A DNA stretch of 64,000 bases, taken from positions 5,211 through 69,210 of the forward strand of contig JAFXTY010000050.1 of the NCBI GenBank assembly GCA_017535435.1. The letters run 5' to 3'. Of the stretch, positions 4,335 to 23,652 are shown piece by piece. Position numbers and translations under genes: made by a program. The notes beneath the pieces are model-generated. The model saw only the letters and a program-made list of their open reading frames with translations, made no database searches and was not told the origin of the DNA. The number at the start of each line of letters is the position of its first letter. Within the stretch, counting starts at the first letter, position 1. Source of the stretch: Spirochaetia bacterium (GTDB taxonomy: Bacteria; Spirochaetota; Spirochaetia; CADAEX01).

Positions 4335-5300
4335 TCAAGCTCTTCCTTTCTTCACCATAACCTCGTAGAGGAATACGGGGAACAGGGTCTCCTGCACCTC
4401 GGTGCGGACACTTCGGAAAAGCTTGTCGTATCGGGCGCAGGTGGCCATTATTTTTTCCAGGTCAGCAGTGGTGTACCGCTGGGCACCTGCGGTATGGGTG
4501 GTCTGACCACGCTTTGTGGTGACACCGTTCTTAAGGCAGGCTTCGTAGGAGCCAACACCCTGGTCCATCATGGTGCGCACGCCCAGCATACGCCGCAGCT
4601 GCCATATAAGGCCGCCCAACAGCTGTATGGGGGCTCCGTCCGATGACATCATCAGGTTCTTTGCAATCTCGGTAGCCTTCTCCAGGGTGCCCACCAATAG
4701 CTGGTCATAGAGAGTGAATACGTTCTCCTCTTTGCCGTTGAAGAGCATCTCCTCAATCGCTTCCAGGGTTATGGGCTCCTTGCTGTCGAAGAACAGAGCC
4801 AGCTTGTCGCACTCGTTCTTAACAGAAAGTGTATTGGCATCGCAGTTTCCCGCTATGAATGCAGCAGCATCGGAATCGATGGGAGTTCCCAGCCTGCGGA
4901 AATAGTTCTGGATATAGCTCCGCATCTGGGGCTCCTTAAGTTCCCAGAACACCTTCTCTTCCCCCACCGCCTTCTTAAGCTTTGCATCCACCTTCATGCC
5001 GCTGTCGGTAAAGATAAGCACAGCATCCTCGGAGGGCTTCTTCAGGTACTGCAGGAACAGGTCTATATCCTTCTTCTTGAGCTCTGCAGTATCATTAATG
5101 AATATAAGTTTGAAACTTGAGAACATAGAGAGGCTTTCCGCTGTCCCTATCACGTCATTCATATTGGAATCGTATGGATAGAAGGTGTACTCCTCGATCT
5201 CATCACCATACTGTTTCTTGATTTCTGTGCGGATTGAATCTATGTATGCTTTTTTCTCCCCCAGCTCCGGGCCGGTAAGGAGATAGCTGGGTTTAATCAT
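4335..5300 (-). CDS. holA: DNA polymerase III delta subunit
   Basis: 321 aa. Length and N-terminal YLLTGPE...K. pattern fit HolA. Placement is typical next to housekeeping genes. Confidence 0.65.
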   Translation of the reverse strand: MIKPSYLLTGPELGEKKAYIDSIRTEIKKQYGDEIEEYTFYPYDSNMNDVIGTAESLSMFSSFKLIFINDTAELKKKDIDLFLQYLKKPSEDAVLIFTDSGMKVDAKLKKAVGEEKVFWELKEPQMRSYIQNYFRRLGTPIDSDAAAFIAGNCDANTLSVKNECDKLALFFDSKEPITLEAIEEMLFNGKEENVFTLYDQLLVGTLEKATEIAKNLMMSSDGAPIQLLGGLIWQLRRMLGVRTMMDQGVGSYEACLKNGVTTKRGQTTHTAGAQRYTTADLEKIMATCARYDKLFRSVRTEVQETLFPVFLYEVMVKKGRA

Positions 5301-5563
5301 TCTTCTTCAAACTTGTTCTCGAAGATCTTGCTGATTGCTTCTACAGCTTCGGCCTCGTCGGCTCCGTCGGCCTTGAGGGTAAGGACAGTCTGATATGTGG
5401 CGGCAAGGGTAATTATGCCCATAATGGACTTTGCATTGATCTCATCGTCATCCTTTGACAGTGTGATGTCGGACTTGAACTTGTTGGCAACTTTGACAAT
5501 CATTGCAGCAGGTCTTGCGTGGATTCCCGCCCTGTTCCCAATTACGACTTGTTTACTGATCAT
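5297..5563 (-). CDS. ptsH: phosphocarrier protein HPr
   Basis: 88 aa. GIHARPA (His15 region) and KSIMGI (Ser46 region) motifs. Confidence 0.9.
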   Translation of the reverse strand: MISKQVVIGNRAGIHARPAAMIVKVANKFKSDITLSKDDDEINAKSIMGIITLAATYQTVLTLKADGADEAEAVEAISKIFENKFEEE

Positions 5564-5565
5564 AT

Positions 5566-6561
5566 TTATTCCTCGCCGAATTTATGTTCATTGTTGTAAA
5601 ATGAGGAGATATTCTTGGCCTCGAGCCACTGAATAGTCCTCCGGTTGAATTCCTTTGCCGAGAAGTAGCCCATGCTCTTGAGCCTTTCGTTCATGGCGCC
5701 GGTCTCAATTATGATAGGAATATTCCGTCCAGGCTTCACTGGGATGGTGAGGGATGGAATCTGCACTCCCAGAATCTCGGTGGTGTTCTCGTCGGTTCCA
5801 AGCCTGTTGTACTCTTTCTCGTTGTCCCATTCCTCCAGGTTAACCACCAGCTGTATCTCCTTCTGGTCCCGGACTGCTCCGATTCCATAAAGATGTGATA
5901 TGTTGATGATTCCCAGCCCCCTGATCTCCATGTGATGGGCCAGCTGCTGGTTGCCGCCCCGGCCTACCAGGCTGTTGCCATAGAGGTTCCTGATTTCCAC
6001 CACATCATCGGCAATAAGGCGGTGGCCCCGCTCTATAAGCTCCAGGGCAGTCTCACTCTTTCCTACACCGCTCTTTCCCTGGATAAGGATTCCCATTCCG
6101 TATACCTCCACCAGGTCGCCGTAAATAAGCTGTTTGGGTGCGAATACAGAGCCCAGGATACGGGAAAGGCGCCGGGTGAGCTCGGTGGTGGAAAGGGGGG
6201 TGACCAGCAGCGGGCAGTTGGCCTTGGATGCTATTGCCTTGATTTTCTCGCCAGGCTGAAGGCCGGTGGAGAAGATGCAGCATGGTATCTGGTATGAGAA
6301 GAATTTTTCTATGTTCTGGAAATCGAAGTTCTGCTCTTTCTCCATCTTCTCGATGAAGTTGGATTCTCTGATTCCGAAGATCTGGATACGCTGATAAGTG
6401 AAGTTGTCGAAGAAACCTATGAGGGCCAGACCGGGGCGGTCGAGAAAGGACATAGTTATCTCGTTCCCCAGCCCCTGGCGGCCTGCAACGCATTTCAGCG
6501 ACAGAGCATCATTTTCTTTCAGGTCCAGATCAAGGAGATCCAGGACTGTAAAATTCTTCAT
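5566..6561 (-). CDS. hprK: HPr kinase/phosphorylase
   Basis: 331 aa. Walker A GKSGVGKSETALELIERGHRLIADD and the C-terminal HprK signature. Directly upstream of ptsH. Confidence 0.9.
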   Translation of the reverse strand: MKNFTVLDLLDLDLKENDALSLKCVAGRQGLGNEITMSFLDRPGLALIGFFDNFTYQRIQIFGIRESNFIEKMEKEQNFDFQNIEKFFSYQIPCCIFSTGLQPGEKIKAIASKANCPLLVTPLSTTELTRRLSRILGSVFAPKQLIYGDLVEVYGMGILIQGKSGVGKSETALELIERGHRLIADDVVEIRNLYGNSLVGRGGNQQLAHHMEIRGLGIINISHLYGIGAVRDQKEIQLVVNLEEWDNEKEYNRLGTDENTTEILGVQIPSLTIPVKPGRNIPIIIETGAMNERLKSMGYFSAKEFNRRTIQWLEAKNISSFYNNEHKFGEE

Positions 6562-8284: not shown

Positions 8285-9148
8285 ATGAAACAATATCTTG
8301 ATTTAGTGAAATATGTGCTTGAGAACGGCCAGCGGAAAGTGAACCGGACTGGAGTAGCCACCTTGAGCTGTTTTGGAGTGTTCTATAAGGTGAATCTGGC
8401 AGAGGGGTATCCTCTCCTTACCACCAAGAAAGTTTATTTCAAATCCATGCTCCAGGAGCTTTTCTGGTATCTTTCCGGGGAGGAGCATATCCGGAACCTC
8501 CGCCAGCATACCAAGATATGGGATGCCTGGGCAGACGAGGAGGGACATCTGGAGACAGCATACGGCCGGTTCTGGCGGCGGTTCCCGGTGCCGGAGCAGG
8601 GGCTCCCGGGGGAGAAATGGGCCACAAAGTGGGTTACCACCGACCCTGTTACAGGACAGAAGACCTTTGACCAGATCCAGTACATCATCGATTCACTTAA
8701 AGAGATCAAGAAGAACCCGGAGTCCCCGGCCCTGCGGAGGCTGGTGGTAAGCGCCTGGCATCCGGCAAATGCGGCGGAAAGCCTGCTGCCTCCATGCCAT
8801 TACAGCTTCTGCTTCAACGTGACAGGCGGCAAGCTGAACTGCCATCTTACCCAGCGTTCTGCAGACATTGCCCTGGGTGTTCCTTTCAACATCGCATGCT
8901 ACGCTCTCCTTACCATGATGCTGGCAAAAGAGACCGGATTTGAGGTGGGCGAGTTCGCCCATACCCTTATAGATGCCCATATCTATGAGAACCATATAGA
9001 CGGCCTTAAGGAGCAGCTGACCCGGACCCCAGGCAAACTTCCTACAGTTAAGATTGCGGACAAGCCGTTCAACGAGCTGACTCCGGACGATATCGAACTT
9101 ATCGGCTATGAGCCTCAGGGTTTTATTAAATTTGGAGTTGCGGTTTAA
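8285..9148 (+). CDS. thyA: thymidylate synthase
   Basis: 287 aa. ThyA signatures (MKQYLDL..., active-site region ...LPPCH.) and correct length. Confidence 0.9.
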   Translation: MKQYLDLVKYVLENGQRKVNRTGVATLSCFGVFYKVNLAEGYPLLTTKKVYFKSMLQELFWYLSGEEHIRNLRQHTKIWDAWADEEGHLETAYGRFWRRFPVPEQGLPGEKWATKWVTTDPVTGQKTFDQIQYIIDSLKEIKKNPESPALRRLVVSAWHPANAAESLLPPCHYSFCFNVTGGKLNCHLTQRSADIALGVPFNIACYALLTMMLAKETGFEVGEFAHTLIDAHIYENHIDGLKEQLTRTPGKLPTVKIADKPFNELTPDDIELIGYEPQGFIKFGVAV

Positions 9149-9151
9149 GCC

Positions 9152-9628
9152 ATGAAAGAGATAAATGTCATTGTGGCAATGACAAAGAGCCGTGTGATCG
9201 GCAAGGATGGCGCACTCCCCTGGCACCTGAGCGAGGACCTTAAGCTGTTCAAAGCCCATACCACCGGCAATATAGTGATCATGGGGCGCAAGACCTTTGA
9301 TTCCATCGGCAGGCCCCTGCCCAACCGGCGGAACATTGTGGTGTCCAAAAGCATCCGGGAGGACGAGAAGGTAAGCGGCGTGGAGTATTTCCCGGACCTG
9401 GATCATGCTGTTGCATCAGCCCAGGAGGGAGACGGCCGCATCTTCATCATCGGAGGGGCCAGCATATATCACCAGATGATAGAAAAGGCTGACCGGCTTT
9501 ATATTTCAATGGTGGATGGAGAATTTGAAGGGGACACTTATTTCCCCGAAATCAGGGATGATGTGTGGAAGGTGGTGGCCACCGAGCCTCACGCTGGATT
9601 TACACTGAAAATATACGAGAGAAAATAA
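9152..9628 (+). CDS. folA: dihydrofolate reductase
   Basis: 158 aa. INVIVAM...IGKDG.LPWHL and IMGRKTFDSIGRPLPNRRNIV motifs. 3 nt after thyA. Confidence 0.9.
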   Translation: MKEINVIVAMTKSRVIGKDGALPWHLSEDLKLFKAHTTGNIVIMGRKTFDSIGRPLPNRRNIVVSKSIREDEKVSGVEYFPDLDHAVASAQEGDGRIFIIGGASIYHQMIEKADRLYISMVDGEFEGDTYFPEIRDDVWKVVATEPHAGFTLKIYERK

Positions 9629-9642
9629 TTGGAGAGTTGACC

Positions 9643-9918
9643 ATGGACATGGACGAATTGAAGCTTGAGATCAAGAAGATCATTATTTCATCATTGGAGC
9701 TTGAGGATGTAAAGCCTGAGAACATTGTGGACTCGGAGCCTCTTTTCGGAGCAGGTCTGGGACTTGATTCCATAGATGCGCTGGAGCTGGGAATTGCCCT
9801 TAAGAAACGTTTCGGTATCTCATTCTCGGCAGAGAGCAGCGACAACAGAAAGCATTTTGCATCGGTGGATGCACTTGCAGCATATATTTCAGCTCAGAAA
9901 AATGGAGAGGCAAAATGA
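9643..9918 (+). CDS. acyl carrier protein, APE-cluster type
   Basis: Start moved to ATG 9643 with GGAGAG RBS. The ORF-track N-terminal extension overlaps folA. LGLDSIDALEL phosphopantetheine-attachment motif. Confidence 0.85.
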   Translation: MDMDELKLEIKKIIISSLELEDVKPENIVDSEPLFGAGLGLDSIDALELGIALKKRFGISFSAESSDNRKHFASVDALAAYISAQKNGEAK

Positions 9919-10163
9919 CAAAAGAGGAAATTTTCGACAAGCTTAAAGAAATCTTCATCAGCGAATTTGAGCTGGATGAGTCAAAGATAACCATGGATGC
10001 CCTGGTGTTTGAGGATCTGGATCTGGACAGCATCGATGCAGTGGACATCATTGTAAAGATGAAGCGGTTCCTCCCTGCCAAGATCAACCCTGATTCCTTC
10101 AGAAAGGTCCGCACTGTAGGGGATGTGGTTGATGTTCTGTACGAGGCATCAAAGGCAAAATAA
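9915..10163 (+). CDS. acyl carrier protein, second copy
   Basis: 82 aa. DLDLDSIDAVDI motif. 4-nt overlap with the preceding ACP gene. Confidence 0.85.
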   Translation: MTKEEIFDKLKEIFISEFELDESKITMDALVFEDLDLDSIDAVDIIVKMKRFLPAKINPDSFRKVRTVGDVVDVLYEASKAK

Positions 10164-12314
10164 GTGGCTTGGACCCATAAGCAGATAAAGGCTGCCGTCT
10201 GCATCGGGTTTCTGGTGTGCGGCGGTATTATTGCCATTATCACCCGCTCTGCAAGGATTCTGACTTTCTACCCGGCGCTGGTGAACCTGTTCTTTCTGGT
10301 GCTATTCGGGCATACTTTATTTGCAGGTCCCAGCATGGTATATCGGCTTGCTACCCTTAAGGACAAGAGCATTGCCATAAGCCCTTATAGAAAAAAGATT
10401 GCAGCATACTGCCGGAATGTGACTCTGGTATGGTGCTGTTTTTTTATTGTGAACGGCAGTATAGCCCTGATGTCTGTGTTTGGAGATTCCTACCGGTTCT
10501 GGGCATTATATAACGGATGTATAGCCTACATCCTCATGGGACTTTTATTTTCAGGGGAGTATATTGTGCGTAAAGTTGTGCAGAAGAATATGAAAGGGGA
10601 TTTTATCCCTCTGACCCAGGTTAAGCTGAATTCCAGGGATATGGATTCTATTGTCTGCTATGAGGGAAGATATACAGATGGTGTTTTCAAGAGGTGGAGG
10701 GATTTTGCAGAAGACTGCACCAAGATGCGCCATTTCCTCTTGTCCCAGAATGTGGATAAGTGGATTTTGAACTGCGAGGACTGCTACTATTTCTATGTCA
10801 CTTTTGCCTCCCTGCTGCAGTGCAGGAAAGAGATTCTCCTTACAGCCAACATCACTCCTGAATTCATAAAAGAGATCCGGCTTCCCGGCATCGGTTTCCT
10901 TACCGACCAGAAGGCTCCGGATTCCACCGATATTGCTGCCATCATTGAGCAGCCTTCAATGGGAACCGAGGAGTTTCCCCCTATTGTTGCCTCGGAAACC
11001 AAGATTCATATGTATACATCAGGCAGCACCGGCCACCCGAAGGCAGTGCTCCAGCGGATGAAAGAGTTTGAGCTGGACAATGCCTTCATCATGTCCAAAT
11101 GGGGTGATGATTTCTATAAGCGCATAGTGTGCTCCTGCGTGAACCAGCACCATATCTACGGGCTTCTGTTCTCTGTGGTGCTTCCTTTTGCTGCCGGCGT
11201 TCCATTCCGCAGGAACCGTATCACTGTTCCTGCGGAGTTCAAGAGCCTTACCGACACCTCATATATGATTATCGCTGTTCCCGCGTTCCTTAAGAGGACA
11301 GTGGAGGATGAGACAGAATCCTTCGGCCTTAAGAGCCCTGTCATCTTCACATCTGGTGGCGTGCTCACCCCTGACGTGGCTAAGAAGACAGACCAGATCA
11401 TGGGATTCTGGCCTATCGAGGTATATGGAAGCACCGAGACCTCCGGCATTGCATACCGCCAGTCCAAGAACGGCCTTGAGTGGACACCCTTCGACAACGC
11501 CGAGATTTCACAGAATGCCGATGGCTGCCTGATTATCCGCTCTCCATACATAAGCGATCCGGCCGGCTTTGAGACTGCTGACCTGGTGGAGATTTTCCCC
11601 GACGGCCGTTTCCTGCTCAAGGGGCGTTCCGATTCTATTGTAAAAATCGAAGAGAAGCGTATCTCTGTGACTGAGGTGGAGAACCGCCTTAACCAGAACC
11701 CATATGTGAAGGACAGCTGTGTTATCGCAATGGCAGACCGGAGGCAGTACCTGGCGGCAGCCGTTGTTCTATCCCCTGCCGGCGTGGAGAAGTTTGCCGG
11801 CGCTGATAAATTTGATATCAACCAGTACTTCAGAAATTATCTGGCAGGCTTCTTCGAGGCTGTGGTGCTGCCCCGGAAATGGCGTTATCTGGATGCAATC
11901 CCCCAGAATGCCATGGGCAAGCGGAAAAAGGATGATATAAAGGCTCTCTTTGAGAAGAAGATAGAGGATATCCACGGCATCTCCTTTGAAATAAAGGAGC
12001 AGGAGGAGAATAAGGTTGTTGTTGCCTTTGTCGCTCCAGAGAACTGTGACTTCTACGACGGCCATTTTCCGGAGAAGAAATTTCTGCCGGCCGTAGCCCA
12101 GTTCCACATTGCGGTCAAGGTGGCAGAGCAATACTTTAAAGTTGAGATTCCACTGGTGGAGACCAAGAGAATCAAGTTCTCCCATCCTATTCAGCCTGAT
12201 ACCCCTATGCTCCTGACTATAACTAATGATGGAGACAAGCTGCAGTTTACCTATAACGACGAGGCTGGAAGGGAGCATTCAAGAGGCACCTTCCTTGCAA
12301 AGGAGCGGCAGTGA
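10164..12314 (+). CDS. tri-domain fusion: 4-TM membrane domain, AMP-dependent adenylating ligase, and C-terminal FabA/FabZ-like hotdog dehydratase
   Basis: 716 aa with GTG start directly after the ACP stop. Residues 1-150 are hydrophobic helices. Adenylation cores are YTSGSTGHPKAV, YGSTETSG and GR.DS.VKI. The C-terminus FYDGHFPEKKFLPAVAQFHIAV resembles the FabZ HFPG..VMPGVL active-site region. Confidence 0.75.
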   Translation: MAWTHKQIKAAVCIGFLVCGGIIAIITRSARILTFYPALVNLFFLVLFGHTLFAGPSMVYRLATLKDKSIAISPYRKKIAAYCRNVTLVWCCFFIVNGSIALMSVFGDSYRFWALYNGCIAYILMGLLFSGEYIVRKVVQKNMKGDFIPLTQVKLNSRDMDSIVCYEGRYTDGVFKRWRDFAEDCTKMRHFLLSQNVDKWILNCEDCYYFYVTFASLLQCRKEILLTANITPEFIKEIRLPGIGFLTDQKAPDSTDIAAIIEQPSMGTEEFPPIVASETKIHMYTSGSTGHPKAVLQRMKEFELDNAFIMSKWGDDFYKRIVCSCVNQHHIYGLLFSVVLPFAAGVPFRRNRITVPAEFKSLTDTSYMIIAVPAFLKRTVEDETESFGLKSPVIFTSGGVLTPDVAKKTDQIMGFWPIEVYGSTETSGIAYRQSKNGLEWTPFDNAEISQNADGCLIIRSPYISDPAGFETADLVEIFPDGRFLLKGRSDSIVKIEEKRISVTEVENRLNQNPYVKDSCVIAMADRRQYLAAAVVLSPAGVEKFAGADKFDINQYFRNYLAGFFEAVVLPRKWRYLDAIPQNAMGKRKKDDIKALFEKKIEDIHGISFEIKEQEENKVVVAFVAPENCDFYDGHFPEKKFLPAVAQFHIAVKVAEQYFKVEIPLVETKRIKFSHPIQPDTPMLLTITNDGDKLQFTYNDEAGREHSRGTFLAKERQ

Positions 12315-13057
12315 GCGAGTTCGCACCAGGGGCTGTGATCCCGGTCTACAACCATGGCAGCACCGCAGAGCCCATAGTTGATTTCCTTGTCTCACACCGC
12401 ATCCCTGTTGTCCTGGTGGATGACGGCAGCTACCTCAAGAGCAAGGCTGCCCTGGCCAAGATAGAGAAAAAATACCCTGATGATGTGACCCTGCTTACCC
12501 TTCCCGAGAACCAGGGCAAAGGGGCTGCGGTGATGATCGGCATAGAGATGGCGGCAAACCTGGGCATGACCCATGTGCTTCAGATTGATGCAGACGGACA
12601 GCACGATATCAACAGGGTAATGCCTTTCTTTGAGCTTTCAAGGAAGCACCCGGAAGCCCTGATATGCGGTTACCCGGAATATGACGAGACGGTGCCTAAG
12701 AACCGGCTGACAGGGCGGAAGATCACCAATACCATGATAGCAATCGAGACTCTGGGCAGCGGCATACGGGACGGAATGTGCGGCTTCCGGGTCTATCCTG
12801 TGGAGTCCACTCTTAAAATACGTAAGAAGCTGGCGTTTCCCCGCATGGGCTTTGACATAGATATTCTGGTAAAGCTTTACTGGTCCGGTGTCCCTGTCAT
12901 AGACAGCCCTGTCAAAGTGACGTACCCGGAGGGTGGAACTTCCAATTTCCGCATGGTGCACGACAACATAGAAATAAGCATGGTTCATACCCGCCTTTTC
13001 TTCGGAATGCTGTTCAGGCTTCCCAAGCTGATTGCCCTGAGGAAGCTCAATGGCTGA
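12311..13057 (+). CDS. family 2 glycosyltransferase
   Basis: 248 aa. VVLVDDGS and DADGQHD (D.D.H) motifs of GT-A/GT2. Confidence 0.75.
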   Translation: MSEFAPGAVIPVYNHGSTAEPIVDFLVSHRIPVVLVDDGSYLKSKAALAKIEKKYPDDVTLLTLPENQGKGAAVMIGIEMAANLGMTHVLQIDADGQHDINRVMPFFELSRKHPEALICGYPEYDETVPKNRLTGRKITNTMIAIETLGSGIRDGMCGFRVYPVESTLKIRKKLAFPRMGFDIDILVKLYWSGVPVIDSPVKVTYPEGGTSNFRMVHDNIEISMVHTRLFFGMLFRLPKLIALRKLNG

Positions 13058-13994
13058 GAAAGAGCACTGGTCAAAGCAGCATGAGAAAGGAAAGCTCTGG
13101 ATGCGGAAATTCACACTGGCCTGCATCAGGATACTTCCTGGAATAGTTGTACGTATTCTTGCTATCCCGATAGGCTTTTTCTTCTGGCTCATCTCGGGGC
13201 CGGAGCGGAAGGCGATTATAAAATATCTTAAGAAAGTAAGGCCCGACAGAAAGCCCTATACGCTGCCCCTGTTCCTCGCCTTTTCCATCACTATCATAGA
13301 GAAGGTGGAGTCCTGGGCCGGCAAGATAAGGCTGGGCAAGATACATTTCCAAGATGATGATATAAATACAATCTGGAAGGAACTGGAGCAGGGCAAAGGA
13401 GCGCTTCTTGTCTGCTCTCACCTGGGCAACATGGAGATGCTCCGGGCTATTGCAGACTTCGGCGATATCGGGGTTTCCCGCAGGGTTCCTGTGATTTCCA
13501 TCGTGGACTTCAAGGTGACAGCTGGGTTCAACAAGATGATAGAAGATGCCAACAGCAGTTCTATGCACAACATAATCAGCGCCTATGACATTGGTCCTGA
13601 TACTATGCTTATGCTGCAGGAGCATGTTGCCAAGGGCGGCATAGTAGTTATAGCCGGTGACAGGAATACAGAGGGAAAACTGGACAGAAATTTTGACATC
13701 GATTTTCTGGGGTCTTCCGCCCATTTTCCTCAGGGGCCTTTTATCATTGCGTCCCTTCTGGAGTGTCCGACCTACTTTGTCTTTGCCGTCAGGCAGAAGC
13801 CTCTCTCTGTTTCGGCAGAATACAATATGCACATTCATAAGACAAGGGTGAAGTTTTCCGGCAGCAGGGCAGAGAAGAAGCAGCAGATACGGCAGATGGC
13901 CGAGGAATTTGTCTCCTATCTGGAGAAATATTGTAACAAATATCCCCTTCAGTGGTATAATTTTTATGAATACTGGGAAAAAGGTGAATTATGA
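13050..13994 (+). CDS. LpxL/HtrB-like lysophospholipid acyltransferase
   Basis: 314 aa. N-terminal TM segment and an acyltransferase-like core (LLVCSHLGNMEML). Position matches the LpxL-like acyltransferase of APE clusters. Confidence 0.6.
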   Translation: MAEKEHWSKQHEKGKLWMRKFTLACIRILPGIVVRILAIPIGFFFWLISGPERKAIIKYLKKVRPDRKPYTLPLFLAFSITIIEKVESWAGKIRLGKIHFQDDDINTIWKELEQGKGALLVCSHLGNMEMLRAIADFGDIGVSRRVPVISIVDFKVTAGFNKMIEDANSSSMHNIISAYDIGPDTMLMLQEHVAKGGIVVIAGDRNTEGKLDRNFDIDFLGSSAHFPQGPFIIASLLECPTYFVFAVRQKPLSVSAEYNMHIHKTRVKFSGSRAEKKQQIRQMAEEFVSYLEKYCNKYPLQWYNFYEYWEKGEL

Positions 13995-14401
13995 GTATTG
14001 AAACATCAGTTGAGTTTAAAGTGGAATTTTATGACGTGGATGCCATGGGAGTGGTATGGCACGGCAACTATGTGAAATACATGGAGCTGGGGCGGTGTGC
14101 CCTTCTTGATAAGATAGGCTATGGCTACAACGAGATGAAGGAGAGCAATTATGCTTTTCCGGTAGCCTCCCTCAAGCTTAAGTATATAAAGCCGCTGATG
14201 TTCAAGCAGACTGCAGTCATAAAGGCAGTTCTTACCGAATATGAGAACCGGATCAAGATAGAGTATTTCATCTATGATAAAGAATCGGGAGAACTGGTCA
14301 CCAAGGGAGAGAGCATCCAGATGGCTCTGAATATGAAGACCCTGACAACCTCTTTCCAATGCCCGGAATGCTTTATCAAGAAGGTTGAAGCTCTGTTATG
14401 A
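13991..14401 (+). CDS. 4HBT/YbgC-family acyl-CoA/ACP thioesterase (hotdog)
   Basis: 136 aa. FKVEFYDVDAMGVVWHGNYVKYME is the 4HBT active-site region. Confidence 0.75.
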   Translation: MSIETSVEFKVEFYDVDAMGVVWHGNYVKYMELGRCALLDKIGYGYNEMKESNYAFPVASLKLKYIKPLMFKQTAVIKAVLTEYENRIKIEYFIYDKESGELVTKGESIQMALNMKTLTTSFQCPECFIKKVEALL

Positions 14402-15000
14402 GAAAAATTCTGTTATTCCTTATTCTGTTTCTCGCTTTCACAAGCCTGCTGGCCGCTGATCAGCTGGAGGAGGTCTATTCCAGGATCTCGAGCCATCCGG
14501 TGACCAAGGGAGAACTCACCCAGGAGCAGTATATCAAGATGGCAAACCGCAGTCTCATTTCCAAAGGGACTTTTGTCATGGCTTCCGATAATGGAGTCAT
14601 CTTTGAGATCATCGATCCTTTCCCATCCTCTTTGGTTGTGACCCCGGAGAAGATGGTGCAGACCCTGCCCGGCGATGTGGTTTCTGTCATGGACGGTAAA
14701 GATAATGCCATGTTCAGCAATATTGCAAAGATAATCCATTCTGTCTTTGCAAATGATGTGCAGGTGCTCAAGGACAACTTCCAGGTCTCTGTGACCGGGG
14801 GGCCCAAGGATGTGGTCACACTGATTCCAAAGGATCCTCTTCTATCCATGCTTTTTCAGAAAATCACTCTGGCCGTGGGTGATTCCATAGATTCTGTCTC
14901 TATAATCGAGACAGGTGGCAACTGGGTGAACTATACTTTTTTCAATAAAACTTTTCCGGAGAAGCTGACTGAAGATGAAAGGCAGCGGCTGGCCAATTAG
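14398..15000 (+). CDS. LolA-like outer-membrane lipoprotein carrier family protein
   Basis: 200 aa with signal peptide. Size and position (between the thioesterase and the MMPL exporter) match the LolA-like component of APE clusters. Sequence similarity judged only by eye. Confidence 0.5.
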   Translation: MRKILLFLILFLAFTSLLAADQLEEVYSRISSHPVTKGELTQEQYIKMANRSLISKGTFVMASDNGVIFEIIDPFPSSLVVTPEKMVQTLPGDVVSVMDGKDNAMFSNIAKIIHSVFANDVQVLKDNFQVSVTGGPKDVVTLIPKDPLLSMLFQKITLAVGDSIDSVSIIETGGNWVNYTFFNKTFPEKLTEDERQRLAN

Positions 15001-17200
15001 GCGGATCCTTTTCCTCTGTGGGGTGGCTGCAGCCTTTATTGCCGCTCTGTGCCGGGGGATAAACCTGGATACCAGCTTTTTCTCTATCTTCCCGGAGTAC
15101 AGCTCATTGTCGGAGGTAGAGAAAAAAATATCCCAGAACACATCCTCATCTGTCTATATCTTTGCAGAAAGCTCTGATTTTGATACCGCAAAGAGGGGAG
15201 CCGAAGCTTTCTATGATGCATTTATAGACTCCGATATTTTCAGAAGTCTGGTGATGTATCAGGATGCAGATTCCTTCGATGAGGTAAAGACTTTTCTCTT
15301 TGAACACAGATATCAGCTTATTGATGATGATACCCTTGCCCTTCTGGATGCGGGAAAGGCAGATGCTGTTGCAAAGGGAGCCCTTTCCCAGGTTTACAGT
15401 CCCTTCTCCTTTGCCGATTTAAGCCATCTGGATAAAGACCCGTTCCTTCTGACAGAAAAAAATATGAAAAAGTATGCATCTCTGGGAGCGGGCAATATGT
15501 TCATGAAGGAGGGATGCCTTGCGGCCAAGTCTGCAGGAAAGTGGTATGTGATGATAAGGGGTACAGTGACCGATTCTTCCCTCTCCTTCTCCAAAAAAAA
15601 TGGAATAGGAAAAGTATATGAGCAGATAAAAATCCTGGAGCAGGAAAATCCGGAGATTGCCTATATCTGTTCGGGCGTTCCTTTCCATAGCTATGAGAGT
15701 TCTTCCAAGGCCATGAAGGAGATTTCTTGGATAACAGGAATATCCCTGACGCTGGTAGCTCTTATTATTTTTGTTGCATTCCGTTCTTTGGTCCCCATGC
15801 TTATTTCTCTGGCCAATATTACAGTATCGCTGATGTTCGGCCTGGCTGTGGCTCTGATTTTCTATGGTAAAATAAATGCCCTTGCACTGGTTTTCGGAAC
15901 CACCCTTATAGGAGTCAGCATCGACTATTCTATACACTGGTTTGTAAACCGGGAGAGATTATTCCGAAGCCTTGCAGTGAACTGCCTTTCTACCGAGGTG
16001 AGCTGGTGCCTGCTGATGCTGGCTCCATTCCCGCTTCTGCGGCAGATTGCTCTGTTCTCGGCAGCAGGCCTCCTGTGCTCCTATCTGACAGTGCGGCTTA
16101 TTTATCCCCTGTGTCCTGCTGCAGAGGGCTGTTCTGCCGAGGCTGGAGATAAAGCAGGACAGGGGTCTGGGGGACACCTTGCCCGGACTGCCGGGATACT
16201 GGTTATAGCTCTCTGTCTTATAGCCTCTGCTGCCTCAGGCATAAGAATAAAAAACAATATCAGGGGAATGTATACAATGTCGGATCACCTGCTGGAGTGG
16301 GAAAAGAAGGCTTCCGGCATACTTGGCCTGGGCAGCAGCGGTCAGTACTTTATCGTAGCCGGCCGTGGCCCTCAGGAACTGCTGGGCCGGGAGGAGCAGC
16401 TGACAGCCGCCTTGGAAAAGGAGAAGAAGGCTGGCGCCCTGGGTGGCTATGCCGCCATCACCAACTATGTCCCTTCCATGGCGCGCCAGGCCAGGAGCTA
16501 CCAGGCGGCTTCCCTGCTTCTCCAGCGCTCCCAGGCGCAGCTGAAAGCTCTTGGTTTCGGGAGCGCTGCGGCCGCTCCGTTTGAGCTTGATTACAGGAAC
16601 AGCGCGGGCAAGGTGGTGTCCTTGAATACAACTCCCTCCTTCCTGCAGGAGAGCATCGACACCCTCTACCTGGGAAAAGTCGGTGACACATATTACTCCG
16701 TGGTGTTCCCTCTGCAGGTCAAGGACAGCGAAGCCCTTAAAAGCCTTGCCGACGGAAATCATATTTTCTTCATGTCTAAAATCAAGGATATAGAACAAGA
16801 GCTGGATCACCTTACCAAGATAGCTTTATGCTTTATTCTGGCCTCTTATCTGCTGGTGTTCCCGCTCCTGTTTGTTGTATATAAGAAAAAGGCCCTGGGG
16901 ATTGCACTGGTTCCTGTAGCTGTGATTCTTGGTTCCCTTGCCTTTGTATCCTCCACCGGAGGAGTGGACCTCTTTGCCTGTTCAGGCATCGTCCTTATAT
17001 TCGGCCTTGGTCTGGATTATCTTGTATATGGTCTTGAGAAAAAGTCTGGAAAAGCCACACTCCTTTCCTTCATCACCACAGAGCTTTCCTTCGGCGCTTT
17101 GGCATTAAGCAGCTTTGTCCCTGCCCATGTGTTCGGTCTTACTGTCTGTGCGGGATTGGCTTTAGCTTATCTTCTCTCCTGCTTGATTAACCGCAGTTAA
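14975..17200 (+). CDS. MMPL/RND-superfamily exporter
   Basis: 741 aa. Two 6-TM bundles, each preceded by a periplasmic loop. GxS.DYS.H-type motif (GVSIDYSIHW) typical of MMPL/SSD proteins. Confidence 0.8.
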   Translation: MKGSGWPIRRILFLCGVAAAFIAALCRGINLDTSFFSIFPEYSSLSEVEKKISQNTSSSVYIFAESSDFDTAKRGAEAFYDAFIDSDIFRSLVMYQDADSFDEVKTFLFEHRYQLIDDDTLALLDAGKADAVAKGALSQVYSPFSFADLSHLDKDPFLLTEKNMKKYASLGAGNMFMKEGCLAAKSAGKWYVMIRGTVTDSSLSFSKKNGIGKVYEQIKILEQENPEIAYICSGVPFHSYESSSKAMKEISWITGISLTLVALIIFVAFRSLVPMLISLANITVSLMFGLAVALIFYGKINALALVFGTTLIGVSIDYSIHWFVNRERLFRSLAVNCLSTEVSWCLLMLAPFPLLRQIALFSAAGLLCSYLTVRLIYPLCPAAEGCSAEAGDKAGQGSGGHLARTAGILVIALCLIASAASGIRIKNNIRGMYTMSDHLLEWEKKASGILGLGSSGQYFIVAGRGPQELLGREEQLTAALEKEKKAGALGGYAAITNYVPSMARQARSYQAASLLLQRSQAQLKALGFGSAAAAPFELDYRNSAGKVVSLNTTPSFLQESIDTLYLGKVGDTYYSVVFPLQVKDSEALKSLADGNHIFFMSKIKDIEQELDHLTKIALCFILASYLLVFPLLFVVYKKKALGIALVPVAVILGSLAFVSSTGGVDLFACSGIVLIFGLGLDYLVYGLEKKSGKATLLSFITTELSFGALALSSFVPAHVFGLTVCAGLALAYLLSCLINRS

Positions 17201-17782
17201 GGTGAAATCGGGGAGATCATTGTATTTCTTGATGATCAGGTTATCTCTGTCTGTCTTACGTTCAAAGGCTGTGGCCATAACATAGCCGCCCCCCTCATAC
17301 ATCGAGTAGAAAAGGCTGCTCTGGCAGAGAATTCTACTTCCGCTTATGGAGAAGGAGGGGGTCTCCCTTACTGCTCCGACAGTGGTTCCCAGCAGCTTTA
17401 TATGAGCCTCCTTGAGCACCCACAGCATCATAAAACGTCTCTGTTTCTCTTGGGGATTTCCAGCCTCTTCCAAGAAGGCTTTCTCCTCTGGATGAAAAAA
17501 CTTCTCCGCTATGGCAATGGAAACTTTTCTGTCAGAGCGCTCGATATCGCATCCTGTCTTTCCTTCTGACATTGTACAGATCACCAGATTCTTGGCATGG
17601 GAGATGTTGAAATCCACATTGCAATCGGTATACTCCGGCCTCCCTGCCTGGGTTATGTGCCGTTCCGGGTGGCTGCCTATCAGCTCTTCTTCCATAAGGG
17701 AAAGGAGCTCAAGCCCTTTTGTGTGCTGCTCCTTATAAATGTGAGATTCTGATGATAAAATGCCCAGTCTGCTTTCCATCAA
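17162..17782 (-). CDS. Sfp-type 4'-phosphopantetheinyl transferase
   Basis: 206 aa. FNISHA, GCDIE and WVLKEAHIKLLG motifs (PPTase motifs 1-3). Antisense to the cluster. Its 3' end overlaps the MMPL gene end by 39 nt. Confidence 0.7.
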   Translation of the reverse strand: MMESRLGILSSESHIYKEQHTKGLELLSLMEEELIGSHPERHITQAGRPEYTDCNVDFNISHAKNLVICTMSEGKTGCDIERSDRKVSIAIAEKFFHPEEKAFLEEAGNPQEKQRRFMMLWVLKEAHIKLLGTTVGAVRETPSFSISGSRILCQSSLFYSMYEGGGYVMATAFERKTDRDNLIIKKYNDLPDFTLTAVNQAGEKIS

Positions 17783-17842
17783 TGCAAGTATATAGCTTTT
17801 TTTACTGGAAAGGAAGTCAATTAACTGTTATTATATAATATT

Positions 17843-18415
17843 ATGAAGGTTGCTCTTAAGCTTCTGACCGTTCTAATGATCTCCATCCTCCTCTTCTCCT
17901 GTGTCACCAGACGGGAGAATGATGCCAGATATTCGGTATATGTTACAAACGAGGCAAAATTCGAGCTTCTGCCCCCTTCAGCCTTCCAGGAGAACATGGA
18001 CCGGTTCCAGAACATAACCGGCTATTTCCAGAATAAAGTGCACATCTTCGGAGCCTATATCAAGAGCGATGACGAGAGGGTGGCAATCACCTTCTTCAAC
18101 CAGATGGGAGGTAGCGTGGGAGATCTGCTTTACACAGGGGATTCCCTTCAGGCCGATTCACATTTCACCCCTCCTGGGGCAAAATTTGAATATATGATGG
18201 CAGACTTCCAGTTCTGCTACTGCAAAAAGGAACTCCTTGCCGAAAGCCTTGAGGCTGTGGGACTCCGTTTCGGGTGCACTGAGCAGGATGGAAAGGAGAT
18301 CCGGCAGATATGGGATAAGGACCAGCTGGTAATCCAGGTGGAAAAAGAGAAAAACCATACCAGTCTCCAGAATTTCCTGCGGCAGTACAGATACGATATC
18401 CAGGAGGGAACCTGA
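17843..18415 (+). CDS. putative lipoprotein
   Basis: 190 aa. Lipobox LLFSC. Sits where APE clusters carry a small lipoprotein. Confidence 0.5.
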   Translation: MKVALKLLTVLMISILLFSCVTRRENDARYSVYVTNEAKFELLPPSAFQENMDRFQNITGYFQNKVHIFGAYIKSDDERVAITFFNQMGGSVGDLLYTGDSLQADSHFTPPGAKFEYMMADFQFCYCKKELLAESLEAVGLRFGCTEQDGKEIRQIWDKDQLVIQVEKEKNHTSLQNFLRQYRYDIQEGT

Positions 18416-19521
18416 TGGCTGTCTATCTTTCTTCCCCGGGTGTTGCATGCTGTGCCGGAAGCGGACTTGCAGCCCTGCATGATGCAGTTTTGGAAAGGAA
18501 GCCATGGCATAAGACTGACCTTGCAATGGAAGCTCTTATGGATGATGCCCTGTCTCAGATCAAGGATGCCGTGGCCTTGGCTGTAAATCGTTATGGAAAC
18601 AGCCGTATAGGAGTTTTTGTAGGCTCCTGCGACAACGGCACTTCCTATTCCCTGCCGGCACACAAGCAGTTCTTTGAAACCGGCTCATTTCCTGCTGGCT
18701 ACTCATTCTCATACCAGAAGGCAGATTATCCCGCCGCATATATTCAGAAAAAACTGGGGCTCCGTGGCTTTGCCGCCGCCTGTGCCACCGCCTGCGCCTC
18801 CAGTGCCAGCGCTATAATCAAGGCATGCCAGCTTATAAAGGCAGGTTTCTGCGATGCAGCTGTTGCAGGGGGTGTGGATATAGCCTCCAGGATTGTCCTT
18901 TCCGGCTTTGGGGCACTGGAGGCAGTTTCCCCAGGTCTTACCAATCCTTTCAGTAAGAACAGGGACGGTATTTCCCTTGGAGATGGAGCCGCATTCTTTG
19001 TCATTGCCCGGGAAGACCTGTGGGAAACAGGCATACAGCTTCTGGGCTGGGGTGAAAGCTCCGATGCCCATCACATTACTGCTCCCGAGGCCAGCGGCGC
19101 ACAGGCGGCTGCCGCAATAAAGAAGGCATTGGACAGCGCCGGGCTTAAGCCGACTGATATCGATTACATAAACCTTCATGGAACCGGAACCAAGCTGAAC
19201 GATCTTATGGAAAGCCGGGCCGTGGCCAGTAACTTTGGATCGGGGATGCCTCCTGTAAGCTCCACAAAGCCGGTCACTGGCCACACCCTGGGGGCGGCTG
19301 GGGCTCTTGAGCTTGCAATCTGCTGTTCCCTCATCACTGCCGGCGACGGCAAGCTTCCTCCCCAGCTCTGGGACGGAGAAAAAGATGAAGAGCTGGAACC
19401 TCTTAACTTTGCAGAAAAAGAAAAAACATATAAAGGCATCCGCACCTGCATGAGCAACACCTTCGGCTTCGGCGGCTGCAATGTGAGCCTGATAATTGGA
19501 GAGAAAGATGAAGGCCATTGA
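18415..19521 (+). CDS. beta-ketoacyl-ACP synthase (KS)
   Basis: 368 aa. Thiolase-fold KS with the active-site Cys region (ACATACASSAS) and His/His region (NLHGTGT..., GHTLGAAG). Confidence 0.85.
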   Translation: MAVYLSSPGVACCAGSGLAALHDAVLERKPWHKTDLAMEALMDDALSQIKDAVALAVNRYGNSRIGVFVGSCDNGTSYSLPAHKQFFETGSFPAGYSFSYQKADYPAAYIQKKLGLRGFAAACATACASSASAIIKACQLIKAGFCDAAVAGGVDIASRIVLSGFGALEAVSPGLTNPFSKNRDGISLGDGAAFFVIAREDLWETGIQLLGWGESSDAHHITAPEASGAQAAAAIKKALDSAGLKPTDIDYINLHGTGTKLNDLMESRAVASNFGSGMPPVSSTKPVTGHTLGAAGALELAICCSLITAGDGKLPPQLWDGEKDEELEPLNFAEKEKTYKGIRTCMSNTFGFGGCNVSLIIGEKDEGH

Positions 19522-19966
19522 GAAAGATGAACTTATAAACCTGCTTCCTCACAAGGGAAGGATGTTCCTCCTGGACCGTGCGGTGGATGTGGATTATGAG
19601 GATTATTCCATAAAGACCCAGGTGGATGTGACAAAGAATTCCATGTTCTATGACGAGGGGCTGGGAGGGATTCCTTCTTACATAACCTTTGAATATATGG
19701 CTCAGAGCATCTCTGCCCTTTCTGGCTTTGCCAACAGGCGCAAGGGATTGCCTCCGAAGGTGGGAGTCATCCTCAGTGTCTCTGACTTCAAAACCTTTGT
19801 TCCTGTGCTTGAGGCGGGAACAACTGTCACAGTCGCAGATTACCATCAGGCTGTGGTGGACCGGGTCTTCTCTTTCAACTGCACAGCCCATGTGGGTGAC
19901 ACTCTTGTGGCATCCGGCAAGCTTACAGTGATGGACATTGATGATCTGAGCGAATTGGGTATATGA
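19496..19966 (+). CDS. FabA/FabZ-like 3-hydroxyacyl-ACP dehydratase
   Basis: 156 aa. LPHKGRMFLLDR matches the FabZ LPHRYPFLLVDR region. Confidence 0.75.
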   Translation: MERKMKAIEKDELINLLPHKGRMFLLDRAVDVDYEDYSIKTQVDVTKNSMFYDEGLGGIPSYITFEYMAQSISALSGFANRRKGLPPKVGVILSVSDFKTFVPVLEAGTTVTVADYHQAVVDRVFSFNCTAHVGDTLVASGKLTVMDIDDLSELGI

Positions 19967-19983
19967 TGAAGGAAGGAGCTTTT

Positions 19984-20709
19984 ATGGATAAAAAGAAAGT
20001 GCTTGTGACCGGGGCTGGCCGGGGTATTGGCCGCGCCATTGCCTTGGCCTGTGCAAAGGCAGGATATGAGGTTATTGCCCATTACAATAAAAGCAGCCGG
20101 CCGGCAGCTGAGCTGAAATCTGAGATTGAAGCAGGCGGCGGTGTATGCCGGCTTATCCAGTTTGATATCTCTGACCGGGCCGACTGCCGCAGGAAACTTG
20201 AGGCTCTATGGGAAGAGCAGGGGCCGCTGTGGGGCATTGTGTGCAATGCTGGAATCTGCTCCGACAACACCTTTGTGGCTCTGTCTGACAATCAGTGGGA
20301 TTCTGTCATCAACACCAACCTGAACGGTTTCTTCAATGTCCTTTCTCCGCTTGTAATGCCTATGTGCCGCAAGAAAAAGGGACGCATAGTGACAATAGCC
20401 TCTGCCTCCGGCATCATAGGAAACCGGGGTCAGGTCAACTACAGCGCCTCCAAGGCCGGGATCATAGGTGCCACCAAGGCTCTTGCAACCGAACTTGCCA
20501 GCCGTTCCATCACCGTGAACTGCGTGGCTCCGGGGGTAATTGAGACAGATATGATAGGGGAGGTTCCCGAGGACAAGGTTCTGCCTGCCATCCCTATGGG
20601 GAGATTCGGAAAACCTGAGGAAGTGGCTCCTGTTGTAGTATTCCTCCTCTCTGAGGAAGCATCTTACATAACACGGCAGGTTATTTCTGTAAACGGTGGT
20701 CTATTATGA
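19984..20709 (+). CDS. 3-oxoacyl-ACP reductase (SDR)
   Basis: Start at ATG 19984 with GGAAGGAG RBS. TGAGRGIGRAIA Rossmann motif and YSASKAG catalytic Tyr-x3-Lys. Confidence 0.85.
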   Translation: MDKKKVLVTGAGRGIGRAIALACAKAGYEVIAHYNKSSRPAAELKSEIEAGGGVCRLIQFDISDRADCRRKLEALWEEQGPLWGIVCNAGICSDNTFVALSDNQWDSVINTNLNGFFNVLSPLVMPMCRKKKGRIVTIASASGIIGNRGQVNYSASKAGIIGATKALATELASRSITVNCVAPGVIETDMIGEVPEDKVLPAIPMGRFGKPEEVAPVVVFLLSEEASYITRQVISVNGGLL

Positions 20710-21929
20710 ACAGAAGAGTTGTGGTAACTGGCGGAAGCGTAATCTCTGCCCTGGGAAATGAATGGAACGAGATTTTTGCAAACCTGAAGCAGAAGAAGAA
20801 CAAAATCAAATATATGCCTGAATGGGAGAGGTACCAGGGGATGAACACCCGTCTGGCCTGTCCTGTGGATTTTAAGGCTCCCGATTTCCCCCGGAAAAAA
20901 ACCAGGGGCATGGGACGCATTGCCCTTATGGCTGTGACCAGTGCAGATAATGCTCTTAAGGATGCAGGCCTTCATGAAAGCCCGGAGCTCAAGGCTGGAC
21001 GATGTGGAGTCTCCTACGGTTCCTCTGCCGGCAGCATCGACTCCCTCCTGGACTTCTACTCCATGCTTATAACAGACACTGCAAACAAGATAAGCGCCAC
21101 CACCTACATAAAGATGATGCCCCAGACCTGCGCTGCCAACATCAGTGTCTTCTATGGCCTTACCGGCCGTCTTATAACCACCAATACGGCCTGCACATCA
21201 GGCAGCATGTCCATAGGATATGCCTTCGAAAGCATAAGAAACGGACAGCAGGACATAATGCTTGCCGGCGGTGCCGAGGAGCTTTCCCCCGCCGATTCTG
21301 CTGTGTTTGACGTGCTCTTTGCTGCCAGCGGGTTGAATGATAAACCAGAGCTGACCCCAAAGGCCTACGATAAGAATCGGGACGGACTGGTGATCGGCGA
21401 AGGTTCGGGAACCCTCATCCTTGAGGAATATGAGCATGCTGTGGCAAGAGGTGCCAAGATTTATGCCGAGATGGTGGGCTTTGGAACAAACACCGACGGT
21501 ACACATATAACCCAGCCCAACAAGACCACTATGCGCCGGGCCATGGAACTGGCCCTGGAAAGCGCAGGTCTTACCCCCGACAGGATAGGCTATGTGAATA
21601 CCCACGGCACCGCGACTCTGGCCGGCGATGTGGCAGAAAGCCATGCTACCTACGAGGTGTTCGGAGGTAAAGTACCAGTCAGCACAATCAAGAACTATAT
21701 CGGGCACACCCTGGGCGCCTGCGGCGTCATTGAGGCATGGACATCAATCAATATGATGAGGGAGGGGTGGCTTGCCCCGAACATTAATCTGACCGAGGTG
21801 GATCCAGAATGCGCTCCGCTTGATTACATAATGGGCGATGGAAGGGAGACCAAAGTGGACTACATAATGTCCAACAACTTCGCCTTCGGAGGAATCAACA
21901 CATCTCTTATTTTCAAGAGGTTATCATGA
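20706..21929 (+). CDS. beta-ketoacyl-ACP synthase II-like (KS)
   Basis: 407 aa. TACTSG active-site Cys, HGTAT and GHTLGACG His motifs. ATGA-type overlap with the KR gene. Confidence 0.85.
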   Translation: MNRRVVVTGGSVISALGNEWNEIFANLKQKKNKIKYMPEWERYQGMNTRLACPVDFKAPDFPRKKTRGMGRIALMAVTSADNALKDAGLHESPELKAGRCGVSYGSSAGSIDSLLDFYSMLITDTANKISATTYIKMMPQTCAANISVFYGLTGRLITTNTACTSGSMSIGYAFESIRNGQQDIMLAGGAEELSPADSAVFDVLFAASGLNDKPELTPKAYDKNRDGLVIGEGSGTLILEEYEHAVARGAKIYAEMVGFGTNTDGTHITQPNKTTMRRAMELALESAGLTPDRIGYVNTHGTATLAGDVAESHATYEVFGGKVPVSTIKNYIGHTLGACGVIEAWTSINMMREGWLAPNINLTEVDPECAPLDYIMGDGRETKVDYIMSNNFAFGGINTSLIFKRLS

Positions 21930-23008: not shown

Positions 23009-23652
23009 TGGAGCTTTATATCAACCGATGGGCCTTTTGGGCACCGCCTTGCGACAACCAAGCCGCCTCGCCGCCCCTGGACTATGTCCCGCCTCTATTA
23101 AAGCGCAGACTCAGCCAGCTGACCAGGATGACCATAGAGGTTGTGCACCAGGTGCTGGATGCAGCCCCTGAAAGCGGCCTGGTCTTTGTCTCGTCGGGCG
23201 GCGAGTCGGCCCGGCAGCTGCAGGTTGACAGGATGCTTATCGAGGATGGCGGCATACTGCCGGCTCCCTTCTCCCTGTCAGTCTTCAACGCCTCTCCAGC
23301 CATGGCTACCATAGCCCTGGGTATGAAGGGAGGCTACACCGCACTGTTCCCGGCTCAGAACCTTTTCCAGGAGGGACTTGTATACGGAGCTGCCCCTGTC
23401 ATGGCTGGAGAGACAGAATCTGCGATTCTGGTGTTTGCCGACCAGCAGCTGCCGGCCGAGTATATGGCCATTGCCTCCCCGGAGGACATAATTCCACCCT
23501 ATGTAGCCTCCTTCGTCCTCTCTTCTGTAAAACAGCCCGGCGGTATGGCAATAACTTTGAATCCCGAAGCTGCCTGCATCGGTGAAGCAGTTCCTTACTC
23601 ATCCCTGGAGGAACTTATAACCATGCTCAAGGGGGAGGCTTCCAGTGTCTAA
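23008..23652 (+). CDS. KS-N-terminal-like / chain-length-factor-like protein lacking the catalytic Cys
   Basis: 214 aa. Position and size match the CLF-like partner of APE KS enzymes. Low-complexity Ala/Pro-rich region. Weak similarity judged by eye. Confidence 0.5.
   Translation: MELYINRWAFWAPPCDNQAASPPLDYVPPLLKRRLSQLTRMTIEVVHQVLDAAPESGLVFVSSGGESARQLQVDRMLIEDGGILPAPFSLSVFNASPAMATIALGMKGGYTALFPAQNLFQEGLVYGAAPVMAGETESAILVFADQQLPAEYMAIASPEDIIPPYVASFVLSSVKQPGGMAITLNPEAACIGEAVPYSSLEELITMLKGEASSV

Follow-up and report, generated by a model that had tools for sequence, protein, structure and literature searches.

The 64,000-nucleotide stretch of Spirochaetia bacterium DNA analysed here (contig JAFXTY010000050.1, hereafter the window) comes from a rumen spirochaete and contains a complete biosynthetic cluster for an aryl polyene (APE), a predicted pigment lipid, at approximately 9640..24412. 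Within the cluster, a single open reading frame (ORF) at 10164..12314 of the plus strand, delimited by means of the ORF list and domain matches, encodes a 716-amino-acid protein with a GTG start in which homologues of ApeG, ApeH and ApeI follow one another. We consider it probable that the ORF encodes a genuine three-domain protein that originated by end-to-end fusion of adjacent apeG, apeH and apeI genes. E. coli CFT073, whose APE genes are named apeA to apeR (PMC8253772), served as a reference. In its genome apeG (c1198, 193 amino acids), apeH (c1197, 452 amino acids) and apeI (c1196, 117 amino acids) are consecutive, with overlaps of 4 and 14 nucleotides. BLASTP aligned window protein residues 9–141 with E. 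coli ApeG residues 64–189 (36% identity over 133 residues, E 4e-27) and residues 148–597 with ApeH residues 5–449 (29% identity, E 3e-51); residues 630–702 aligned with ApeI residues 28–102 (27% identity, E 1e-6). The three matches are collinear, in the order ApeG, ApeH, ApeI, with practically no linker added between them. A stop-free frame of 716 codons with ordered matches to three known proteins cannot reasonably be put down to chance. The initial annotation of the window had recognized three modules in one 716-residue ORF that begins with GTG directly after an acyl carrier protein (ACP) stop codon, and its coordinates are exact.

The GTG start codon adjoins the TAA stop codon (10161–10163) of the 82-residue ACP gene, and the TAA-GTG junction, with an AAGG sequence about 8 nucleotides upstream, is identical in two related genomes (loci L002 and L003). 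An alternative gene call of 659 amino acids, starting at Met58, exists in some databases. We prefer the GTG start because the Met58 call drops residues 9–57, which are conserved with E. coli ApeG. Extension of the ORF further upstream is impossible, since the ACP stop codon abuts the GTG. At the other end, the fusion ORF and the next gene share the sequence GTGA at 12311–12314, which contains the stop codon of the former and the GTG start of the latter.

The central part of the protein, residues 148–597 (10605..11954, plus strand), was assigned as an ApeH-like aryl-acid adenylating and ACP-loading domain of the ANL type by BLASTP, Pfam, Foldseek and motif analysis. Pfam detects AMP-binding at residues 268–432 and AMP-binding_C at residues 504–586. 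The ANL motifs YTSGSTGHPK (284–293), YGSTETSG (421–428), GRSDSIVKI (487–495) and GK586 are all present, and all four are invariant in 51 homologues. The domain is collinear over its full length with characterized ApeH and follows the ApeG segment immediately, in the manner of apeH after apeG. The best Foldseek matches of the domain in PDB are aryl-acid ligases, namely CahJ, 4-chlorobenzoate-coenzyme A (CoA) ligase and EntE, with E values of about 1e-21; a search with the whole model recovered ANL enzymes only, as expected. In work on the E. coli cluster ApeH is described as loading the ACP directly (PMC8253772), and the same paper cites in vitro experiments in which Xenorhabdus doucetiae ApeH loads 4-hydroxybenzoate onto ApeE without a CoA intermediate.

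The N-terminal part, residues 1–143 (10164..10592, plus strand), corresponds to a COG4648-type, ApeG-like membrane domain according to BLASTP to E. coli ApeG, our alignment A1, hydropathy and AlphaFold2 modelling. In alignment A1 the domain shares 31 invariant columns with E. coli ApeG, and it occupies the place of ApeG between the second ACP and ApeH. All strongly hydrophobic segments of the protein lie within its first 131 residues, with Kyte-Doolittle peaks up to 2.5. AlphaFold2 predicts four long helices at 5–27, 30–53, 76–106 and 110–143, with a mean predicted local distance difference test (pLDDT) score of 84.7 for the domain, and a short amphipathic stretch joins helices 2 and 3 in the predicted four-helix bundle. 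Loops on the predicted cytoplasmic side carry 12 lysine and arginine residues versus 2 on the other side, and both termini of the domain are predicted to be cytoplasmic. Such a topology would be required for the ATP- and ACP-dependent ligase to lie in the cytoplasm. The domain does not have the full-length ApeG architecture of about 190 residues and about six helices: its start corresponds to residue 64 of E. coli ApeG. The two helices that would come first (about 55–60 residues) are missing throughout the clade of 716-residue proteins and are present in E. coli ApeG and in spirochaete homologues of 770–820 residues. Thus, the membrane segment that the initial annotation had proposed is borne out, but as a homologue of the conserved ApeG that lacks the first two helices rather than as a generic anchor.

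No Pfam or NCBIfam family was matched above threshold by the ApeG domain, the sub-threshold hits being VC0807_fam, IspZ and IspA, and a PDB fold search with the domain gave no match at E < 1. A pyrophosphatase family or fold was likewise not detected in Pfam, NCBIfam or PDB, although a missing match does not disprove such an activity. A profile of the domain compared with E. coli YciB/IspZ (L082 3852..4391, yciB) gave an hhalign probability of 76%. A six-helix ApeG homologue matched Pfam IspA and TIGR ispZ at E of about 0.02, and NCBIfam VC0807_fam scored 26 bits; all of these are below threshold. This faint resemblance to YciB/IspZ is a hint at most and could reflect transmembrane composition only.

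The C-terminal part, residues 607–711 (11982..12296, plus strand), is a real hotdog domain of the ApeI type, as judged from Pfam PF22818, PDB entry 6QSR_A and the AlphaFold2 model. Pfam ApeI-like (PF22818) matches residues 613–698 and scores 29.7 bits when residues 600–716 are scanned alone (the Pfam cut-off is 28.5); all of the 15 homologous C-terminal domains tested match the same family. The initial annotation would have been refuted had an HMM search shown no dehydratase domain in residues 600–716, and this was not the outcome. PDB 6QSR chain A was matched by the sequence (E 6e-7) and by a profile of homologues (E 9.7e-18). The entry is deposited as 'AMP-dependent synthetase and ligase', but judging by cluster homology the chain would be ApeI of X. 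doucetiae. The AlphaFold2 secondary structure shows strands around a central helix at 643–658. The short FabZ-like motif on which the dehydratase call of the initial annotation was based is found at residues 633–636 (GHFP; 12060..12071, plus strand) and contains the proposed catalytic residue His634, which is invariant in the 51 homologues; the surrounding YFDGHFP is invariant or nearly so. At the position equivalent to the catalytic Glu of FabZ the window protein has His648; its clade and P0040 likewise have His there, and other homologues have Asp or Glu. Residues 643–648 are encoded at 12090..12107. An assignment of the domain as FabZ itself was rejected, since it scores 14.8 bits against an NCBIfam equivalog cut-off of 113 and has His648 at the Glu position.

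In APE clusters, dehydration is carried out by an ApeI/ApeP heterodimer in which there is only one active site (PMC8041823). The partner is encoded in the window by a separate gene at 19496..19966 of the plus strand, an ApeP-like hotdog protein identified by Pfam PF22817 (41.1 bits) and PDB 6QSR_B (E 1.7e-5). In this ApeP the Glu is retained (Glu66, in FEYMAQ), but Gly stands where FabZ has its His. The latter position is Asn in E. coli ApeP and His in X. doucetiae ApeP, which has the Glu as well according to a printed alignment. Since window and E. coli ApeP lack the His, the only active-site histidine available there is that of ApeI. Our own alignments, together with the description in PMC8041823, suggest one working site composed of His from the ApeI domain and Glu from ApeP, and the drift at the ApeI Glu and ApeP His positions fits a composite site whose unused half is free to drift. 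With a single composite site the fusion protein could not dehydrate alone and would therefore be half an enzyme. The 'built-in dehydratase' of the initial annotation has accordingly to be replaced by one protomer of an ApeI:ApeP pair.

A search of 5.8 billion proteins for homologues of the fusion recovered an identical 716-residue protein from a Spirochaetia metagenome-assembled genome (MAG), dozens of 716-residue relatives at 83–99% identity from NCBI, ENA, JGI and Logan assemblies, and about 80 further clusters of 700–820 residues at 50–55% identity from Treponema and Spirochaetia. All relatives in this search carry ApeI-like and AMP-binding domains, and the fusion architecture recurs in over 100 sequence clusters of independent assemblies. 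In JGI the relatives are named 'uncharacterized membrane protein / acyl-CoA synthetase / 3-hydroxymyristoyl-ACP dehydratase', and IMG lists the three COG parts. The best 150 representatives of 50%-identity clusters comprise 84 ApeH-ApeI, 24 ApeH-only, 20 ApeG-ApeH and 14 ApeG-ApeH-ApeI proteins; some of the latter are only about 30% identical to the query.

The distribution of fusion states was surveyed in GTDB by scanning one genome per species with the ApeG-domain alignment, which returned 80 loci. The state of each locus was determined by whether the ApeG, ApeH and ApeI segments (G, H and I) share one stop-free frame; below, hyphens join fused segments and slashes separate individual genes. 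In Spirochaetota there are 12 G-H-I loci (and one more with an in-frame stop), 18 G-H/I loci (and three more on truncated contigs), two G/H-I, one G/H/I and one G-I locus with H deleted. Fibrobacterota have four G-H-I loci and one G/H-I. In Proteobacteria 31 of 34 loci are G/H-I, two are G/H/I and one lies on a truncated contig where I was not seen. A single Myxococcus locus is G/H-I and two loci of unclassified bacteria are G-H/I. The claim of the initial annotation that the three functions are separate genes in APE clusters is valid for clusters of the E. coli type but not in general: only three of the 80 surveyed genomes are fully split, H-I dominates in Proteobacteria and G-H in Treponema. 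G lies directly upstream of H in 80 of 80 loci, and among them it was never found fused to the genes for ApeM, ApeL or ApeN (M, L and N).

A rough neighbour-joining tree of the H domain, built without support values, has two main groups, a Spirochaete plus Fibrobacter clade and a proteobacterial clade. G and H are fused in nearly all members of the first clade (the exceptions are L030 and L039), with G-H-I and G-H/I interspersed, so the H-I junction must have been made or broken repeatedly. The second clade is G/H-I, only L055 and L079 being fully split. The G-H-I fusion is a common lineage-specific arrangement, typical for rumen and gut Treponema and Fibrobacter. The Fibrobacter G-H-I proteins (L015, L018, L028 and L044) are 49–53% identical to the window G domain and group with spirochaete sequences in the tree, a pattern that suggests that the cluster passed horizontally between Fibrobacterota and Spirochaetota of the rumen or gut. 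Two unusual loci were observed. In Treponema sp. MAG Im510_bin72 (L017, 725..3136) an otherwise intact G-H-I ORF has one in-frame stop in the ligase domain, which may be a sequencing error, a sign of a pseudogene or a case of recoding. In Treponema primitia ZAS-10 (L020, NZ_JAJQRB010000074.1, 4865..5662) the ApeG-like segment is joined in frame to the ApeI-like segment and the whole of ApeH is missing. The family 2 glycosyltransferase (GT2) gene is absent from this locus too, while the O-methyltransferase, both ACPs, an acyltransferase and ApeP remain; the locus may have arisen by a natural deletion in frame, or its cluster may rely on a ligase from another part of the genome.

The long ORF could in principle be an artefact of a sequencing or assembly frameshift that merged two or three genes, as the source is a MAG and the related L017 MAG contains a stop inside its equivalent gene. 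We regard this as extremely unlikely and rejected it, because the architecture is conserved across independent assemblies and distant homologues: 716-residue proteins at 83–100% identity are known from four assembly sources, single-chain three-domain homologues exist at 50–55% and about 30% identity, and the G-H-I fusion occurs in 16 species-level genomes of two phyla. The frameshift that the initial annotation had wished to see checked does not, therefore, account for the fusion. A different question is whether the hotdog domain takes part in catalysis. It is short (about 110 residues), His occupies the acidic position in this clade, and X. doucetiae ApeP by itself has both catalytic residues, all of which would suit a pseudo-dehydratase, i.e., a non-catalytic docking module that recruits ApeP to do the chemistry. 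Such a role appears improbable given the conservation of His634 and its YFDGHFP surroundings in the 51 homologues and the replacement of the ApeP His by Gly in the window and by Asn in E. coli. Several observations weigh against the interpretation of the ORF as a functional ApeG-ApeH-ApeI protein. A scan of the full protein gives the ApeI domain 24.8 bits, under the Pfam cut-off of 28.5. The occurrence of His648 instead of Asp or Glu would be harmless only if that half-site is unused. The two-helix shortfall means that full ApeG function may not be retained, and neither chorismate lyase nor ammonia lyase was seen in the cluster. The AlphaFold2 model of the whole protein has a mean pLDDT of 80, but the domain arrangement in it is unreliable (predicted template modelling score 0.59). 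Finally, the functions proposed for G-H and G-H-I fusions are read from sequence, conservation and genomic context.

The fusion pattern also bears on the role of ApeG. APE clusters are the family of biosynthetic clusters with the widest distribution in bacteria and ApeG is conserved in them; to our knowledge, it is experimentally uncharacterized, and its current label is that of a transport-energizing pyrophosphatase. In agreement with this label, ApeG was proposed to be a COG4648 'pyrophosphatase' that drives transport (PMC8253772; bioRxiv 10.1101/2020.12.19.423268), and ApeG is found together with ApeL, ApeM and ApeN across APE clusters. If the ApeG part serves export by energizing or assisting the MMPL transporter ApeM, its fusion to ApeH would reflect mere neighbourhood of co-translated genes, without contact with the ligase, and fusion of adjacent genes can indeed be nearly neutral. 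We find this unlikely. The G-H fusion extends across essentially the whole Spirochaete plus Fibrobacter clade, with G unfused only in L030 and L039; in the 80 loci G is always immediately upstream of H and is never joined to M, L or N; the pyrophosphatase family or fold was not detected for the domain; and a 143-residue four-helix bundle leaves little room for a nucleotide or pyrophosphate site. By Rosetta-stone logic, a recurrent, phylum-spanning fusion of G to H argues for the loading enzyme, and not the transporter, as the working partner of ApeG. We therefore propose tentatively, rating it at somewhat under an even chance, that ApeG is a membrane-docking or substrate-handling subunit of the starter-loading enzyme, and that in every producer, also in E. 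coli with its separate proteins, a membrane-bound complex is the site of APE initiation and dehydration.

For the protein as a whole, the best supported interpretation is that of a membrane-tethered module for initiation and dehydration, for which we propose the following mechanism. The ApeG-like four-helix bundle would sit in the cytoplasmic membrane with both ends inside and keep the other two domains at its inner face. The ApeH-like domain would adenylate an aromatic acid starter and transfer it directly to the ACP encoded just upstream. The starter in characterized systems is 4-hydroxybenzoate. The ApeI-like domain and the separately encoded ApeP would form a single-site heterodimeric dehydratase (His634 plus Glu66), which would act after each round of ketosynthase (KS) and ketoreductase (KR) reactions, building the polyene. 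Initiation and dehydration would thereby be tethered at the membrane, possibly with a kinetic benefit, and the polyene-ACP would lie close to the membrane acyltransferases, which complete the lipid, and to the MMPL exporter, which moves it out. The channelling of the growing chain at the membrane that the initial annotation had envisaged is a reasonable inference. The idea of tethering agrees with the proposal that APE-lipid assembly occurs at the inner leaflet (bioRxiv 10.1101/2020.12.19.423268).

By its gene content, the surrounding cluster is of the APE type, and the assignment to an APE cluster made in the initial annotation is supported by a complete gene set, identified by Pfam, that is the same as in E. 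coli CFT073. Two ACP genes on the plus strand precede the fusion ORF and match Pfam PP-binding: an ApeE-like ACP at 9640..9918, in the same order as in E. coli, is the likely acceptor of the starter unit, and an ApeF-like ACP occupies 9915..10163. The rest of the cluster, at 12311..24412 on mixed strands, has a gene set as in E. coli CFT073 c1186–c1204 (PMC8253772). The fusion ORF is followed by genes for a GT2 glycosyltransferase, a lipid-A-type acyltransferase, a 4HBT thioesterase, a LolA-like protein, an MMPL/RND transporter, a 4'-phosphopantetheinyl transferase (minus strand), a DUF3261 protein, a KS, the ApeP-like protein, a KR, a second KS, an O-methyltransferase, a chain-length factor and a PlsC-type acyltransferase. 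The type II polyketide synthase core is complete, with two PP-binding, two ketoacyl-synt, Ketoacyl-synt_2 (chain-length factor), adh_short, ApeP-like and ApeI-like matches in Pfam. The lipid attachment and export set at 12311–24412 is complete as well, consisting of GT2, acyltransferases, thioesterase, LolA-like, MMPL/RND and DUF3261 proteins. The GT2 (248 amino acids; 12311..13057, plus strand) and the lipid-A-type acyltransferase (314 amino acids; 13050..13994, plus strand) are encoded by separate, overlapping genes. Thus, while fusing G, H and I, the window cluster splits ApeJ, which in E. coli is one GT2-plus-acyltransferase protein of 558 residues. The 4'-phosphopantetheinyl transferase gene lies inside the cluster on the opposite strand (17162..17782, minus strand); the E. 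coli APE cluster is described as lacking a dedicated enzyme of this kind (PMC8253772). Directly upstream of the cluster, with almost no gap, thyA (8285..9148) and folA (9152..9628) are found on the same strand, and the thyA-folA-ACP arrangement also occurs in L002.

The window protein is a domain-architecture variant of a known system and is already present in public databases. The H-I junction has been published (PMC8041823), whereas our literature searches on ApeG/COG4648 and on APE in Treponema or Fibrobacter gave no description of G-H fusions, and the lineage-wide G-H fusion is a modestly new point. The protein is of value chiefly for the hint it gives that ApeG acts together with the loading enzyme. 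From the fusion pattern one would expect ApeG to bind ApeH and to be required for initiation and not for export, which can be tested in E. coli. The reading of the ApeI domain is corrected to that of a putative His-donating half of a heterodimer instead of a stand-alone dehydratase. For annotation, entries of 700–820 residues named 'AMP-binding protein' in Treponema and Fibrobacter hide three functions. Apart from these three points, this is a gene fusion of the ordinary kind, between neighbours.

Compared with known systems, the window protein is closest in content to ApeG, ApeH and ApeI of E. coli CFT073, which are the same proteins in the same order and cluster context and with all three of which it aligns. 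In these systems ApeH activates 4-hydroxybenzoate and loads the ACP directly, and ApeI pairs with ApeP. In contrast, the E. coli proteins are three separate polypeptides whose genes overlap where one stops and the next starts, ApeG is longer at its N terminus by about 60 residues, which form two helices, and ApeI has Asp where the window protein has His648. In the ApeH-ApeI fusion of Acinetobacter baumannii, which works in vitro with ApeP as an acyl-ACP synthetase and dehydratase in an APE assay (PMC8041823), ApeI is attached to the C terminus of ApeH by an H-I junction of the same kind and the protein was expressed together with ApeP. A membrane domain is lacking there, however, and ApeG is encoded by a separate gene, the state commonest in Proteobacteria. 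ApeG-ApeH proteins of the Treponema type (for example, those of L008, L010 and L013) belong to the same clade, have the same G-H junction, are 45–55% identical and intersperse with G-H-I proteins in the tree. They differ in that a stop codon sets off ApeI, whose translation begins at a start codon that overlaps or lies nearby. FabZ and FabA have the same fold as the C-terminal domain and the same GHFP catalytic-His motif, and weak profile matches to FabZ structures were obtained (E 1e-6 to 1e-3). FabZ is, however, a homodimer or hexamer with His and Glu in each chain, while the window domain is shorter and appears to be half of a heterodimer. E. coli YciB/IspZ is, like the ApeG domain, a small multi-helix inner-membrane protein, and its faint profile similarity to ApeG lies below curated thresholds. 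E. coli Aas, a membrane-bound acyl-ACP synthetase fused to an acyltransferase, offers a precedent, being an ANL enzyme that is held at the inner membrane as part of a lipid-handling protein with several domains.

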